21,375 nucleotides of DNA from Candidatus Micrarchaeota archaeon. Its GTDB lineage: Archaea; Micrarchaeota; Micrarchaeia; Anstonellales; Bilamarchaeaceae. Positions 3,001 through 21,375 of the stretch are shown in pieces. The first letter of the stretch is position 1. Each line of letters opens with the position of its first letter. Location: contig JBBSVO010000002.1 of NCBI GenBank assembly GCA_038046805.1, positions 147,945 through 169,319 on the forward strand, given 5' to 3'. Position numbers: made by a program.

Positions 3001-6000
3001 GCCTGCCCTTCCTCCAAAATAATTCTCTTGAATTTTTTGCTTATTTCCGCGGATGCGCACAATGCCAATGCGATTATCCACACTAATGCAATGACGTACA
3101 AAAGCACATCTCCAAAATATCCCCAGAAAAGCCCGATTATAATTGTAACTGCCAATGCAAAGAGAAGTATTTTTATCTGTAATGCCAATGCACCTGGTTT
3201 TATTATTGTAATTGTCTTTTCATTTTTTTCTACCATAGTTTATTTGTTGGGACACGAATCGTTAAAAACCATTGACTCAATCTTTACCATGGTTGATTCT
3301 ATGCTTATTTACACAGATGGTGCCTGCTCCGGAAACCCTGGGAAAATGGGGATTGGTGCGGTTCTCATAAAAAACGGGGTTGCAGTAAAGAAAATAAGCG
3401 AGGACATTGGCGAAGGCACTAATAATATCGCCGAATATACTGCGGTAATCCGTGCGCTTGAAGAGGCGCAAAAGCTTGGCGAAGCAGATATAACCCTGCG
3501 AAGTGACAGCCTTCTCATCATTCAGCAATTGCGTGGGGAATACAGAATACGAGCAATCCACCTCCGGGAACTTAAGCGAAAAATCGACGCGATTTGCAGA
3601 GATAAGGGGCACGAGCTTCACGTAACTTTTGAGCATGTCCCGCGCGAGCAGAACAAGACTGCGGATAAATTATCCAAAGATGCCATAGGGTTGTGATGTG
3701 TAGGGCTGGAAGGCGTAATCATGAATGTTGTTCAGGATTTTTCCATAGGAAAATATTTCACCTTTGACCCAAGCAAGGGCAAGCCCATTTATAATTGGTT
3801 TTATTACAAGGAGGCGTTTTCTCCGGAAGTTGTTGATTACGTAATTGATAATCTTGATGAAATAGGAATTTCATCGAGAGCTCGTGACCGAAGGTCACGG
3901 GATTTTGTTCCGCACGGAAAGGCCACTGCGTCCGCTGCAACTCTCTACGACCCTTTTTGCGGTGCAGGAACATCCGTCCTTCGCGCAAAGGAACGCGGAT
4001 TTTCTTCATTCGCGGTTGATTCTTCCCCGCTCGCGGTTTTCGTTTCAAGGGTAAAATGCGCAGATTATTCAGAAAGCGACATTGCGGAAATAAAAAAATT
4101 TTTGGAGGAAATGGGCGGAAAATCATCAACCGAAAGCGAAAGGACGAACTGGGACTTTGAACTCTTCCCGCCACGTATCGCATTCCCGAAATCAAATCTC
4201 AATCAGATTCTTTCAATCCGCAACATGCTTGAATCCGTTGAAAACCAGAACGCTGCCAATTTCCTTATGCTTGCGCTTCTTTCAGTTATTCCGCAATCCT
4301 CGCTTATCGTGAAGGACGGCGGGGTTTTGAAGATTGACAAAAAGAAAATGGCAATGCCTGCAAAAGAAGCATTTAGGAGAAAGGCAAAAGGGATGCTCGT
4401 TGACATTGAAAGCGCGAAAGGTTCTTCTGGCAGTTCAGTTCCAAACACAACTCCAGACATTCGTCTCGGAGATGCAAGAAAAACCGAATTCGAAAGTGAA
4501 TCCGCGGACGTTATTGTAACCTCCCCGCCTTACCTCAACAATATAGATTATTCCAAAATCTATGGTCTTGAGCTGTCTCTTCTCGCACTTAACAAAAAAA
4601 TCACATCCGAAACCCGTGCGCGGAGTGTGCGCTCATTCATAACCTCAACCGCATCCGATACATCAGAACTTCCGCAAGAAGTCCGCGAATTCGCGAATAA
4701 AATTCCAATCGTTGGTTCATACTTTTCCGACATGAGAGCCGTTCTCCTGGAAATGTTCAGAATTCTTCGCCCGGGCGGGGTTGTTGGATTTGTCATTGGA
4801 AATTCCATAATCCATGAAACGCATATTCTCGTTGATGAAATCATTGCCGAAATGGCGGAGTCCGGGTCAAACGGAATCGGCTTCAGCAGCGCGGATGTCG
4901 TTGTGGGGCTTGAGCGCATCGCTGATGTCAGACCAAGGAAGGTTAAGACCAGAGAGAGTATTCTCATTCTCAGAAAATAGAAACCTATTAAAATCTCATC
5001 TCAGTTTCCTTTCCATGCGGAATCCTGCATTCATGTCGTCTATCATAGTATTATTGCTATTTTTGCTAGTTGTTCCGCCCGCTTTTTCCGATTCATCTTC
5101 TACGCCATCAATTCTTGGATTCGATATGCTCTCCGCGGTTTTCCCGATTGTTGCAATGATAATGATAGTAATTCTTGCAATGCTTTACATGGCATCGCAG
5201 ATGTTTTCCCTTCCAGCTCTCAATGCCTGGGTGAAAACAGAAATCAAGGAATTTATAGTCGGCGCGATAGTTGTTGCAATCGTTCTTGGAGTTTTCTTTG
5301 GAACGACTGGTGTTGTATCCATCCTGACTGGAAAGGACAATCCGGAAAAGGCCGCACAGGATGCATTCAAACCAGTTACCAGCGCATTGAATGAGGCATA
5401 CCACGATGTAATACGTGTTTCGCAGGAGATGACTCTTCTTGCAGGTTATTCCTATAACTTTGCAGCACTTCCATTATTCTATTTCAATTATACAGATCTC
5501 AGTGCGCCATACTCTGGAGTTGGACAAGTTCTTTCTGCTCTTTCCCAGTCGGCAAGCGCAATGAGCAATGCACTGATGGTTTATCTTTCGCTTTCAGTTT
5601 TAATGCAATTCTTCTCATTTGCTTCTCTAGTTATATTACCATTCGCACTTTCGCTGAGAATAATTCCATTCACACGCCAGCTAGGCTCAACATTAATTGC
5701 ACTTTCAATCGGAGGTTATATACTCCTTCCAGCTTCAATAATTATTGTTGGAGAGCTTCACAGCCTTATTGAAATTCCAAAGCCAAATTTATCTGATAGT
5801 CAAATCTCTAATATGCATATGGAAATACCTGTTGGTTTTGGCGCATTTTGCGAATCTGATATGAAATGGTTTGCCGCTTTTGGAGAAATCCCATGGGGGA
5901 TCATAACATGCATACCTGCTCTTCCCTATGGTTTCTGGCCCTGTTTTGAGCTAGTTACAAAAGTTATCTATCCAGATATAATGGAAGTATTTCAACTAGT

Positions 6001-9000
6001 CTATGGATGGTCTTTTTATGCCACAGCTAAATTCATGGATGTTGATGTCGGTGCAATCTATGATACGATAGCCCCATTTCTTCAGGAAGTTGGGAATCTC
6101 GTTGTAATCAGCTATGTTGATACAATTCTGGTCGCACTGCTGACAATAATCACAGTAAAAGGGGTTTCAACTGCATTGGGCGGGGAATATTTCATGGCAG
6201 GGATACAGAGGCTGGTTTAGAGTATGGGCAGAGGGTACTGAGGGTTTGTATGGTTGTCTTGAGTCTTGAGTCTCGCGTTTCGCGTTTCGCGTTTTTCTTG
6301 GTAGCCGCACTGATGCTTTCCAATATCTCATTCTCTCTTAGCTGCCCTGAAAACGCAACCAGTTACATCCTCGGATTTCAGGAAACCCAGAACCTTATCC
6401 CGATTGTTCTGATGTTCACAGTGCTTGTCATCGTTGCTGCGTATATGATAGGCACTGCCTTCAACCAGCAGAACATAATCATATTTTACAAGGATGAAAT
6501 GTTCCATCTTTTCTTTTCAGTTCTTCTTCTCCTTGGTTTCACTGGCATTCTTTACACTTCCTGCGAAGTTTCAAAGGGTTTCCTTGATTTTTCATTCTCA
6601 GCAATTGGAATAAATTCGCCGTGTTACCAGACAAATTCGGATATGCTCTCGGTATCCACCTGTTATCTAGGCACGATGGAATCAAAGGGAAAAGTAATGG
6701 TTGAAAGCTTTGTTTCGGATTCAATTTACAATCTAATGGATTCAACATTTGCATTTTCGCTGTATTTCCCATTTTTTGGAGGGGTTACTGTTGCAACCAA
6801 CGCATTCAAGCGCACCTATTCTATGCAGTTTGATTCCCTGAACAATATCTATGTGATGCCTGCGCTAATAAGTATTTCAATGCAGCTTCAAATCCTTAAA
6901 TTTATACAAAATTTTGGAATGCAATTAATCTTTCCACTCGGTTTCCTCATGCGAGTATTCACTCCTACAAGACAGATGGGAAATGCTATAATTGCGTTCG
7001 GAATAGGGATTTACACTATTCTCCCACTCATGTACGTATTAGGGGCGTCAATGTATGATGTGGCACTTGGAAGCTGCGGTAAGTATTCCGGCATTATTGA
7101 CGACGCAGTATTGGGCGGGTGCGGAACAAAAAATAATTTCTTTGATGTTGCCCGCCTTATTCCGCAGGCGTTTTTCCTTCCGAATCTTGCAATGGCGGTT
7201 TTCATTTCGTTCGTAATGGCATTGAATAAGGCATTCAGGGTGATTGGATGAACGACACATCGTTCATGCTCACCTTTCGCGATGCACTCAAGGTGATTGG
7301 ATAATGAGATTTTCGACTGGCATGCTGGCGGTATTTATTGCGGTGCTCGTTCTTGCACCTGTTGTCCTAGCCCAACCGCTCGGTTTGACAACTGGTGATA
7401 CAACAAAACTGGTTGAAAAAACAGAAACTTCAACTGCGCTCGAGCTTGTGAAATACTGGAAAGAACTTTCTGTGCTCGCCCTGTTAATCTCGGCAGTACT
7501 AATTGCACTTGCATATATGTATGGTAATGCATTTGATCAACCTGATTTGAAGGCATGGGCTTCTGTTGAAATCAACCAGGTTATCTCCACTGCGATAATA
7601 ATCCTGGTCCTGTTTGTGGCAGTGGCCTTCCTTGATACCATTGTTGCCGGAGCGGTTGAAGAAAGCGCGCTTCCGAATCTTAAATGTGAGGTTGGCACTC
7701 CATGTGGAATAACAATAGCGCACGCCTATCTTGATACAATGATAAACAACGCGCACAAGGATTCCCGCAGCATTCTCAAACAATCATTTAATTATGCAAA
7801 GGATGCAGCGAAAAGAAGCGGATATAGCTGCAACATGTTTATTCTCCCGATTCCTTGTTTGTGGGCTTCAATTTCTGTGGGTGATGAGCCCCACCTGATT
7901 CTTCAGACTGAGCGACTCAATGCAGTTCTTGATTACTACAACAACATCATTGCCTCAATGAGCGCGCAGAGATTTTTCGTGGATAATATTTCGTTCCGCC
8001 TTGGTCCGGCTATTCTTTTAGTCGGAATCGTGGCACGTTCATTTCCGTTCACGCGAAAGGTCGGTGGTCTTCTTATCGCCGTTGCTGTTGGAGTAATTTT
8101 CGTTTTCCCGCTTATGTATATATTCAATTGGTTCACGCTTAATGTCATGATATTTGGGGATAAGGTATTTGGAAGTGCAGATGCGGTTTGTCCTGCGGAA
8201 TGCCTTGAACCCGCGCCAATTGCATATGCATTTGATCTCTTTACAGGTAAATTTATCAAATTCCAAAGCCTGAACGGCTCCGTCAAATACATCATGGACA
8301 AAACCGGCGTCAGCGAGGAAGATGCATTTGACAATATGAAAAAAGTGGCAAAAGGCACACTTTCCATCTATCAACCAGGGGGCGGAGTTAATATCATGTA
8401 TTCCTGCGAAGCTGAGGCAAATTTTACGAAAAATTATGGGATAACTGATACAGATGCATACTGCCCGCAAATCTGTCGTCAGCTTCCTTATCCAAATATT
8501 CCTTCATGCGCAAATGAAAGCACCCAACTTGCCTGTAGCATGCTCACTCCGTTTTGCAAGGTTTATCGGTACGTTAATATGTCCAAGGTGGACCCAGGGA
8601 AACTAGTCGAAGCGGATGCAAAATGCCCGGTCAAATGCAGGACAATTCCCCCTATGAAATCCAATTGCGCGGTGTTTGATCCAAGTCCAGAGGGAAGCGG
8701 CTTGTGGGGGGGTCTTGGGACAGGGTTAATCTCTCAAAAATGTAATTTTCAGACTGGCGGCTTCGAAAAGGACTGTGTAAAAAAAGTCCTTGAAGATGAT
8801 ATAGATTACTGCCTCAAGTCTTCTTTTGATTGCAGATATACCTTCCAGGAGGACCCAGAATGGGAGCAACCCAGCTGTAATGGAGAGCATGTTGACGCCT
8901 GCCCTCCGATTGGAGAGGGTGATTATCTTGGTAACACTGCACTTGAAAAGTCTTTGGAATCCTGTGTTTATGGAATAGCAGGGGATTCGGACCTGAAGCT

Positions 9001-21000: not shown

Positions 21001-21375
21001 TGAGACAGTTCGGAGACAGTCATAAAGACGATTTCAAAGGAGATTCAGAGCTGGAGAGGGCGCACAGGGATTTTGAAACCCATTCAAGGGCAGCAGATGC
21101 ATCTGGGCAGAATCTGGCAGATAGACTGTCAAAAGCAATGGGAACAGATGTTTCACCGGATAGAATCCATGAATTGGAAAGAACCAATCCAGAGCTGTTT
21201 GAAAAACCAAAGATAAGGGAGGCACACGAATTGTATGACAAAGCAATAACAAAGGCAGAGCAAGCCAATCAGAACTTCATCAGCGCAGTCTCCGAATCCG
21301 CAAATCCAATAATAAAGTCTGCAGTCTCGGACCATGTTGAAAGAGCATTGAGAACAGCAGAGCAAACCCAAGTCA

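Follow-up and report, generated by a model that had tools for sequence, protein, structure and literature searches.

The closest described systems are the Ced and Ted machines (CedA, CedE, CedA1, CedB, CedD; TedA-C), the TrwI/VirB6 protein of R388, DotA of the Dot/Icm system, the tandem VirB6 proteins of Rickettsiales, and the type IV secretion systems (T4SSs) and giant VirB4-fused proteins of Patescibacteria and nanohaloarchaea, respectively. A T4SS is reported to be essential for epibiotic growth in Patescibacteria, and the solved VirB6 and DotA assemblies are described in the same source as homo-pentamers (PMC12857230), a state that counts against a hetero-hexamer. Also speaking against the reading proposed below, a paper on an imaged Micrarchaeota co-culture ascribes the nanotubes to the host (PMC11329633). 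That paper's proteome table carries no VirB4, VirB2 or TrbC label, and its displayed DUF87 entries are host proteins, although unlabelled rows could hide such proteins. Our literature search found no description of an apparatus built on a six-gene array.

The window analysed here is a stretch of 21,375 nucleotides (JBBSVO010000002.1, 147,945-169,319, forward strand) from a Micrarchaeota genome (GCA_038046805.1; Anstonellales, Bilamarchaeaceae) that is 86% complete. Positions without a prefix count within the window, and C2, C3, C4, C5 and C6 are contigs of the genome. This tiny symbiotic archaeon has two copies of a set of six different membrane proteins related to the channel of bacterial conjugation machines, each set with two giant surface-linked proteins, which suggests an apparatus for cell contact and transfer that has not been described before. 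Features of this locus are described below.

A fixed set of six genes

The window contains six co-oriented ORFs (5015-12452) encoding proteins of 333-667 aa with five to six hydrophobic segments apiece in a 19-residue scan, followed by a 1218-aa lipoprotein-type ORF and then a 1726-aa ORF that is open at the contig end (Table 1). Contigs from two other studies (runs X7 and X10) cover the array with zero letter differences in the listed pieces, and an RNA run (X16, share 0.13) yielded scattered low-depth contigs across the whole window, which we do not take as evidence of expression. The position-3 protein carries a Cys-rich insertion of ~300 aa ahead of its last helix; position-3 proteins from arrays of the window's type range from 645 to 1380 aa.

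Table 1. Features of the window, with positions counted from its first nucleotide
Feature	Position	Strand	Length and basis
VirB6/CedA-like subunit, position 1	5015..6220	+	401 aa; family profile, shared motif, position-1 clade
VirB6/CedA-like subunit, position 2	6250..7251	+	333 aa; family profile, position-2 clade
VirB6/CedA-like subunit, position 3, "extended" form	7304..9307	+	667 aa; shared motif
VirB6/CedA-like subunit, position 4, modelled copy	9321..10382	+	353 aa; CedA profile, model, fold matches
VirB6/CedA-like subunit, position 5	10382..11410	+	342 aa; position-5 clade
VirB6/CedA-like subunit, position 6	11433..12452	+	339 aa; family profile, position tree
Cys-rich surface lipoprotein, candidate adhesin/tip protein	12475..16131	+	1218 aa; invariant GC after signal (alignment)
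Giant single-pass protein	16197..21374	+	signal peptide, outer domain ~190 aa, helix 225-243, conserved GxNPF motif, helical tail
Repeated anchor	21286..21375	+	also present in the tip units of C4 and C5

The genome-wide survey's note had described thirteen paralogues without a family match, in two six-gene arrays plus one further copy, and both points are borne out. A profile of the six array proteins (shared motif LPxGxxLRxFPxTRxxGxxLIA) found exactly seven further long members in the genome (E 1e-36 to 3e-17), six at C2:16002-23357 and a singleton at C6:224-1231, before a gap to the next match at E 5e-5; in a Pfam search with the array proteins no family reached its own cut-off. The thirteen paralogues are two copies of a fixed six-gene module and a singleton (6 x 2 + 1), not a loose expansion. 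The survey's note also proposed 12-15 copies in every genome of the order. All 31 of the order's genomes do have family matches, 10-21 in each (matches are not copies). However, G003 and G056 have 6+1 copies (7 per genome), and the set is class-wide rather than specific to the order, being present in 135 of the 151 Micrarchaeota genomes sampled (0.6-1.6 Mb in size). The same 135 also hold the VirB4 N-terminal-half family described below, and the same 16 of the class have neither, so the apparatus is not universal in the class.

Exactly six family genes are present in all 33 arrays that we compared from relatives, mostly with intergenic gaps within ~35 bases, and the clades of the tree follow position in the array. 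All 35 position-2 proteins fall in one clade (support 0.925), as do all 35 position-5 proteins (support 0.987). The nearest neighbour holds the same array position for 227 of 227 proteins, and the position labels require 9 changes on the tree versus at least 140 in 500 shuffles. The comparison shows six subunits of VirB6/CedA type that diverged anciently and have been kept in fixed order. Other neighbours come and go: in 3 of 33 cases no more than three genes separate HARP from the array, a type IV pilin-like cluster lies beside it in one of 33, and a VirB11/FlaI-type ATPase follows it in two of 33. We therefore rejected all three as standing partners, including the pilin-like genes and HARP, whose place beside one array the survey's note had mentioned.

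A probable relationship to CedA and VirB6

The CedA profile matched the position-4 protein at E 0.0035, its sole match in the genome. Across 121 genomes it matched 34 (best E 4.7e-8), and each of the 30 matches inspected is a family gene. The best score, 31.5 bits, lies far below the 330-bit cut-off of the CedA equivalog (NF041796), which none of the 121 genomes exceeds. Only four of 115 family members have a CedA match at E 0.05, each well short of the same cut-off, and no other NCBIfam family is matched by more than a single one of the 115; none matches Pfam TrbL/VirB6 at E 0.05. In an atlas cluster, CedA1 (PF27251) is assigned to 23% of members at 0.87, which we treat as a lead only. When the family profile was run against the sequences of solved structures, there was no hit. 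Taken at the sequence level, these results support a distant homology of the channel-type proteins to CedA.

The predicted fold leans the same way, at modest scores. When the position-4 model (pLDDT 81) was compared with 48,161 chains, the top long matches were DotA (Z 9.1 with 270 aligned, rmsd 8.7) and TrwI (Z 8.5 with 235 aligned, rmsd 6.4); these two lead the long matches at Z 8.5-9.6 (Foldseek E 0.07), under the level of ~Z 13 that is safe for helical bundles. IncA reaches Z 9.0 in a second fold comparison, a point against the likeness. Complex prediction for positions 4, 5 and 6 gave scores of 0.17, 0.36 and 0.18, against a mark of 0.32, and speaks neither for nor against a joint assembly.

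Pilins and a split VirB4

The genome carries six VirB2-like pilin genes. Among 27 such pilins, 14 match T4SS_pilin (PF18895) and nine match TrbC (PF04956) at E 0.05; the genome's own three tandem copies, searched singly, match neither. The best solved relative of the pilins is TrwL (E 0.021), and the pilins resemble the N-terminal hairpin of the VirB6/CedA-like family (E 1.2e-4), much as CedA1 is reported to resemble CedA (PMC9905601).

A second VirB4-like module is located at C3:160906-167561. For the two-helix partner, the top 10 Foldseek hits are all VirB4-containing entries of R388 (E 1.1e-3, probability 1.0), and its comparison with the VirB4 N-terminal domain (TrwK) gives Z 8.2 (rmsd 6.0, 158 aligned). 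The partner ATPases score best with the CedB/CedD and VirB4 profiles, below cut-offs. Comparison shows VirB4 to be split into two adjacent genes, one for an N-terminal half anchored in the membrane and one for the ATPase. In three other families (f13-f15-type), two VirB4 N-terminal halves follow the six genes in 11 of 12 arrays and the ATPase follows in 10 of 12, the array leading directly into this motor, and in G122 the whole run of six genes, VirB4 halves and ATPase ends in two giants. No compared array in the order of the window's genome adjoins a VirB4-type motor. Comparison across families shows that the six subunits, VirB2-type pilins, split VirB4 and two giants form one operon in some of them, and that in this genome the operon is dispersed, with a duplication of the envelope half (six subunits and giant pair). 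A third ATPase considered as part of the apparatus (C2:144596-146251) is HerA instead, and a TrwB-like ATPase (C2:39384-41486), a candidate coupling protein, is unlinked to the arrays and, with that query, found in 14 of 31 relatives.

Three of the objections raised in the survey's note lose their force here. It had seen no sequence-level link to CedA, which the inspected profile matches now provide; it had placed only one copy near a VirB4-like ATPase, before the second module and the arrays that run into a motor came to light; and it had missed any VirB2-like partner. Its reading of the family as VirB6/CedA relatives survives as distant homology within a conjugation-derived apparatus, given the CedA profile, the DotA/TrwI-like fold, the pilins and the split VirB4, whereas its "12-15 copy kit" gives way to a fixed six.

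The giant pair and the contig end

The lipoprotein comes after position 6 in all 10 arrays of the window's type, is found in 30 of 31 relatives, and has a paralogue at C4:89583-92147 (E 5e-10); no Pfam family matches it. An alternating strand-helix pattern in its middle domain suggested a glycoside hydrolase barrel, and the paralogue suggested a transglycosylase-like motif. Both were rejected as unsupported by Pfam and solved-structure searches.

The tail of the giant single-pass protein exceeds 1480 aa before the open contig end, and by its continuation in G001 the full protein would be about 2000 aa. It has a paralogue at C4:92116-97347 and is found in 31 of 31 relatives, with exactly two matches in 25. 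Giants and arrays stand one to one in G003, G056 and G122 and two to two in G000, G015 and G062; because the counts track each other, the two giants belong to the six-gene module. The giant's motif did not turn up in any of the three complete f13/f14 genomes tested, which tells against a constant partnership. The protein is further marked by repeated tip-plus-partner units. The anchor is 92% identical over 90 nt to C4:160081-159992 and 85% over 47 nt to C5, and at its site contig depth is doubled and there are loose ends; this repeat accounts for the assembly break at the end of the window. No tip cassettes were seen near 12 other giants, and scanning metagenome contigs by pattern gave no match to the giant's 3' end.

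A proposed apparatus and its alternatives

In our reading, Micrarchaeota have a domesticated machine of type IV secretion kind on the chromosome, and the window holds its envelope half; we give this explanation as a whole a probability of about 0.58. Descent from a T4SS/Ced ancestor is highly probable, and six non-interchangeable subunits within one assembly are reasonably probable; that the apparatus is directed at a host is a tentative view, held at slightly under even odds. One copy of each subunit would go into one asymmetric ring or stalk, a hetero-hexamer in keeping with the six-fold symmetry of the VirB4 motor, and this ring or stalk may nucleate a VirB2-type pilus or open a pore at cell contact. 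The Cys-rich lipoprotein may bind the partner cell, and the giant, with its variable tail, could set specificity or be the cargo itself. Each of the two modules may have its own contact partner or its own job, with the pilin-singleton-motor operon as a separate minimal Ced-like system. The most likely use is contact-dependent exchange with a host cell, with DNA or protein as cargo. Rather doubtful is a bolder form, in which the first known T4SS-type channel of six different subunits, fixed at 1:1 and driven by a split VirB4, is a host-contact organelle and a candidate for the 21-nm barrel seen in a cultured Micrarchaeon's envelope, and in which each of two machines here has its own adhesin and a giant whose tip-plus-partner units are exchangeable specificity or effector-immunity pairs.

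Micrarchaeota cells might instead use the same machine to pass DNA to one another, or to take up DNA for repair and nucleotides, as a Ced equivalent rather than in host contact. Its closest named relatives are CedA, CedB and CedD, Ced too is described as having its channel and its ATPase in two paralogues each (PMC11868833), a gene for a PLD-family nuclease sits beside this genome's second giant pair and comes after an array in L054, and the two relaxase families searched (PF03432 and PF08751) have no match in the 86%-complete genome. However, one or two channel genes suffice for Ced, a need that the minimal operon already covers, and six subunits and giant partners of 250-350 kDa are left unexplained; the nuclease lies beside only one of 33 arrays, and DprA and ComEC likewise have no match in this genome. 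We regard this use as unlikely. It is also quite unlikely that the six proteins form something other than one ring, such as alternative homo- or mixed pentamers, a pentamer with an accessory subunit, or a stacked pilus-base or pilus-tip series that uses the pilin-like hairpins, the proteins being surface-exposed variants as in Rickettsiales. The pentamer is the solved state (PMC12857230), an Anaplasma operon is reported to hold four tandem virB6 genes with virB3 and virB4, two of them encoding surface-exposed products (PMC7648143), and the extracellular insertions differ widely, up to 1380 aa. Interchangeable variants should, however, differ in number and order, as none of the 33 arrays does, and the duplication took all six together. 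Finally, the modest Z-scores and the lack of any curated cut-off reached would suit a chance likeness among helical membrane proteins, the array being an unrelated envelope complex next to a HerA-like ATPase. With four lines converging (CedA profile, fold, VirB2-like pilins and VirB4 N-terminal fold) and true HerA being a different gene, we consider this very improbable.

The domesticated secretion-like machine would supply a named gene set for how DPANN archaea tap their hosts, searchable in proteomes and tomograms of cultured species, and would make this the third archaeal lineage with a domesticated conjugation machine, a parallel to the T4SS that is essential in Patescibacteria. Should all six subunits share one ring, VirB6-class channels would no longer be homo-pentamers as a rule without exception.

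Comparison with known systems

Like Ced/Ted, the apparatus is chromosomal and combines a VirB6-like channel with a pilin-like N-terminus, a VirB2-like pilin, and VirB4-like ATPases best matched by the CedB/CedD profiles. It differs in its channel paralogues, a fixed six (in this genome twelve and a singleton) where Ced/Ted has one or two, in a split VirB4 and giant partners, in belonging to a different phylum, and in scores far under the CedA and CedB cut-offs. TrwI/VirB6 and DotA provide the top long-range fold matches, and the partner has the VirB4 N-terminal fold. In contrast, those channels are homo-pentamers with VirB5/IcmX, whereas here there is no Pfam TrbL match, VirB5 and VirB8-10 were not identified, and the genes are not on a mobile element. 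The tandem, co-transcribed VirB6 paralogues of Rickettsiales are likewise reported beside virB3/virB4, with large surface extensions and in host-dependent cells (PMC7648143); that account, however, gives four copies in Anaplasma and a diderm T4SS with a full core, and the part cited here reports no giant pair or split VirB4. In Patescibacteria the pilin is described as expanded (six VirB2-like genes) rather than VirB6 (PMC12857230), and the nanohaloarchaeal proposal, as presented, is built on ATPase domains only. Both nevertheless resemble the present case in that episymbionts with reduced genomes are reported to retain T4SS-like parts, in most cases with no relaxase (PMC12102498; PMC10266531).

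The six-gene array

The six-gene array system is real and of the T4SS/Ced kind, with a putative function. The window spans C2:147945-169319, and the genome carrying it has 1.2 Mb on 16 contigs and is 86% complete. A profile of the six window proteins retrieved seven further long members here (E 1e-36 to 3e-17) and, next below them, three short proteins (E 5e-5 to 0.014). The thirteen paralogues counted in the genome-wide survey's note are thus recovered, as six, six, and one singleton outside the arrays. Pairwise identities are about 22–29% over long matches. Searches with the window proteins reached no curated family, while the family's own profile matched 3231 protein clusters (50% identity).

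We fetched 33 arrays with surrounding DNA, choosing regions by top-scoring matches rather than gene count. All 33 contain exactly six family genes; three of these loci (L032, L048, L049) reach the edge of the fetched DNA. In a tree of 227 proteins (the 33 arrays, this genome's thirteen and 16 other singletons, none dropped) the clades track gene order within the array: positions 2 and 5 each group 35 of 35, positions 1, 3 and 6 each split 27 + 8, position 4 splits 16 + 11 + 8, and the 17 singletons fall together. The nearest neighbour comes from the same position for every protein (227/227). Position labels change nine times on the tree, compared with at least 140 in 500 shuffles, a description rather than a P-value as kin are not independent. 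Identity is 27–41% within position groups and 16–25% between them.

Five single-contig genomes of families f13 and f14 have 6+1 copies, as do G003 and G056 from the window's own order. G122 has six and G015 has 6+6+1; two arrays are also present in G062 (family f19). At position 4, this genome's other array groups with motor-linked f15 arrays; the window array joins ten from its own order, a tree placement that marks it as the derived duplicate of the two.

Relationship to VirB6 and CedA

The position-4 model (101 sequences, pLDDT 81) is helical throughout, with an N-terminal hairpin. Foldseek ranked TrwI/VirB6 at the top (E 0.07, probability 0.91). In an unbiased fold search DotA headed the ranking (Z 9.1, rmsd 8.7, 270 aligned), TrwI came third (Z 8.5, rmsd 6.4, 235 aligned) and short helical matches took the neighbouring ranks; a second-look comparison gave Z 8.7–9.6 for R388 stalk entries and 9.0 for IncA. 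Taken alone, this likeness of a predicted fold is weak evidence for VirB6 identity. The CedA profile offers a line of evidence independent of the fold, at the level of sequence. It has one match in this genome, at position 4 (E 9.5e-4), and matched 34 of 121 genomes at 45 places; the best E was 4.7e-8, and no score came near the cut-off. Each of the 30 places that we fetched proved to be a family gene, with the match falling on an RxFxxTRxxGG motif. Pfam TrbL/VirB6 matched none of 115 family members.

Pilins and a split VirB4

The survey's note had identified no VirB2-like partner and only one copy next to a VirB4-like ATPase; this genome has six VirB2-like pilin genes and two motor modules. 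In the pilin family 14 of 27 match T4SS_pilin and nine match TrbC, and TrwL is the best solved relative (E 0.021). The pilins resemble the N-terminal hairpin of the channel family, which parallels Ced, where CedA1 is likewise reported to resemble CedA (available part of PMC9905601).

In both modules the ATPase gives its highest scores against CedB/CedD and VirB4 profiles, and the two-helix gene that precedes it has a fold like the N-terminal domain of TrwK/VirB4; VirB4 is therefore split into two adjacent genes. Of 151 genomes in a sample of the phylum (G054 included), 135 contain both the N-terminal half and the channel family, and with these profiles neither was found in the other 16. Among f13–f15-type arrays (n = 12), two N-terminal halves follow the six genes in 11 and the ATPase follows them in 10; seven have a pilin at most three genes upstream. 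A second, minimal operon consists of pilin, singleton, N-terminal half and ATPase; at 14 of 20 singleton loci the pilin lies immediately upstream. Two f17 genomes (G160, G162) contain one channel gene and one N-terminal half only, possibly the minimal operon alone. None of the remaining 21 of the 33 fetched arrays adjoins a motor, and in these the operon is scattered.

Features of the apparatus and neighbouring genes (contigs of this genome unless stated)
Feature	Position	Remarks
Six membrane-protein genes	window 5015-12452	same orientation; then 1218-aa lipoprotein-type gene and 1726-aa gene cut by contig end
tRNA endonuclease-like, bPH membrane and DNA methyltransferase genes	window 2208-4980	upstream of array; same trio ~20 kb from array in G006 and G015
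Small two-helix pilin-like genes	C2:108995-110192 (three), C4:115460, C4:135174, C1:9230	six
1906-aa protein	C4:115944-121664 (L041:2945-8665)	a VirB2-like pilin gene follows immediately downstream; without Pfam match
Motor modules	C6:1267-4263; C3:160906-167561	two
Coiled-coil and 887-aa two-helix proteins	C3:163839-167561; C6:3526-4263	downstream of the ATPase in the majority of motor operons; no family matched
Five genes with type IV pilin-like N-termini	C2:23345-26988 (L001:9346-12989)	divergent from second array; adjoin array in 1/33 loci only
TrwB/DUF87-like ATPase	C2:39384-41486 (L129:5385-7487)	proline- and glutamate-rich tail; in 14/31 relatives
Second, paralogous giant pair	C4:89583-97347
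Same pair with nuclease gene	C4:89583-97983 (L130)	preceded by membrane-anchored PLD-family nuclease gene; its 1743-aa protein ends in zinc-ribbon-like CxxC...CxxC
Tip-plus-partner units	C4:158563-161416; C5:1-1296	three units
Tip-plus-partner unit, congener G001	C81:1-1727 (L139)	one unit
Duplicated gene pair near tip units	C4:152309-157024	1.3 kb, 90% identical

Giant proteins and tip units

Both giants belong to the six-gene module. The lipoprotein follows position 6 in all ten window-type arrays; in eight of them the single-pass giant is no more than about 10 kb away. The giant's motif is present in 31/31 relatives, with two matches in 25; three complete f13/f14 genomes gave no match to it. 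One array goes with one giant in G003, G056 and G122, and two arrays with two giants in G015 and G062. G122 has the entire series in one unbroken run: two pilins, the six subunits and the motor genes, then genes of 811 and 2707 aa, and finally a giant of 1902 aa. By the positive-inside rule, the giant's tail would be cytoplasmic.

The giant's last 90 bases (window 21286-21375) are repeated on C4 and C5. Three related C-terminal tips lie on these contigs, each opposite a divergent partner gene. The partners have an N-terminal anchor and are 36–43% identical to each other. In the congener, the giant gene can be followed across a contig overlap of 24 bases and leads into a single tip with a single partner, so that the window giant is probably about 2000 aa in full. 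No tip units were seen near 12 other giants. We take the layout to be reminiscent of orphan toxin-immunity or entry-exclusion pairs. The partners also have distant relatives among the genes of two small contigs, C15 and C16, apparently in units of the same sort.

Possible function

The ancestry of the parts, the operon structure, the fixed number and order, the co-occurrence and the joint duplication are established by comparison. Retention of the whole set suggests hetero-oligomers, in which six non-interchangeable subunits would form one ring or stalk. However, VirB6 and DotA rings are pentamers in the available part of PMC12857230, which counts against a six-subunit ring. The two N-terminal halves may occupy the inner and outer places of a VirB4 hexamer of dimers, and the lipoprotein would bind the partner cell.

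DprA and ComEC had no match in this 86%-complete genome, nor did either of two relaxase families searched. The TrwB-like ATPase is not linked to the system and is patchy among relatives. Host contact is a candidate role by analogy with Patescibacteria, whose T4SS is needed for epibiotic growth (PMC12857230, in part). The envelope of a cultured Micrarchaeon also shows a 21-nm barrel, though the nanotubes of that co-culture are assigned to the host (both from the available part of PMC11329633).

Comparison with known systems

A full-text search, with most subscription journals outside its coverage, found no description of a VirB6/CedA set in Micrarchaeota, and neither Micrarchaeota nor DPANN came up in a term search of the main texts, as available, of PMC9905601, PMC11868833, PMC11823120 and PMC12857230. 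As far as the available portions of the sources go, precedents cover parts of the system only. A T4SS has been proposed for nanohaloarchaeal giants (PMC10266531) and is already known in Patescibacteria (PMC12102498). Ced has two channel paralogues (PMC11868833), whereas there are six, six and one here, and Anaplasma has virB6 in four tandem copies (PMC7648143), in contrast to the six-gene arrays. To these, this genome adds a duplicated module, a one-to-one link between array and giant, and the tip units.
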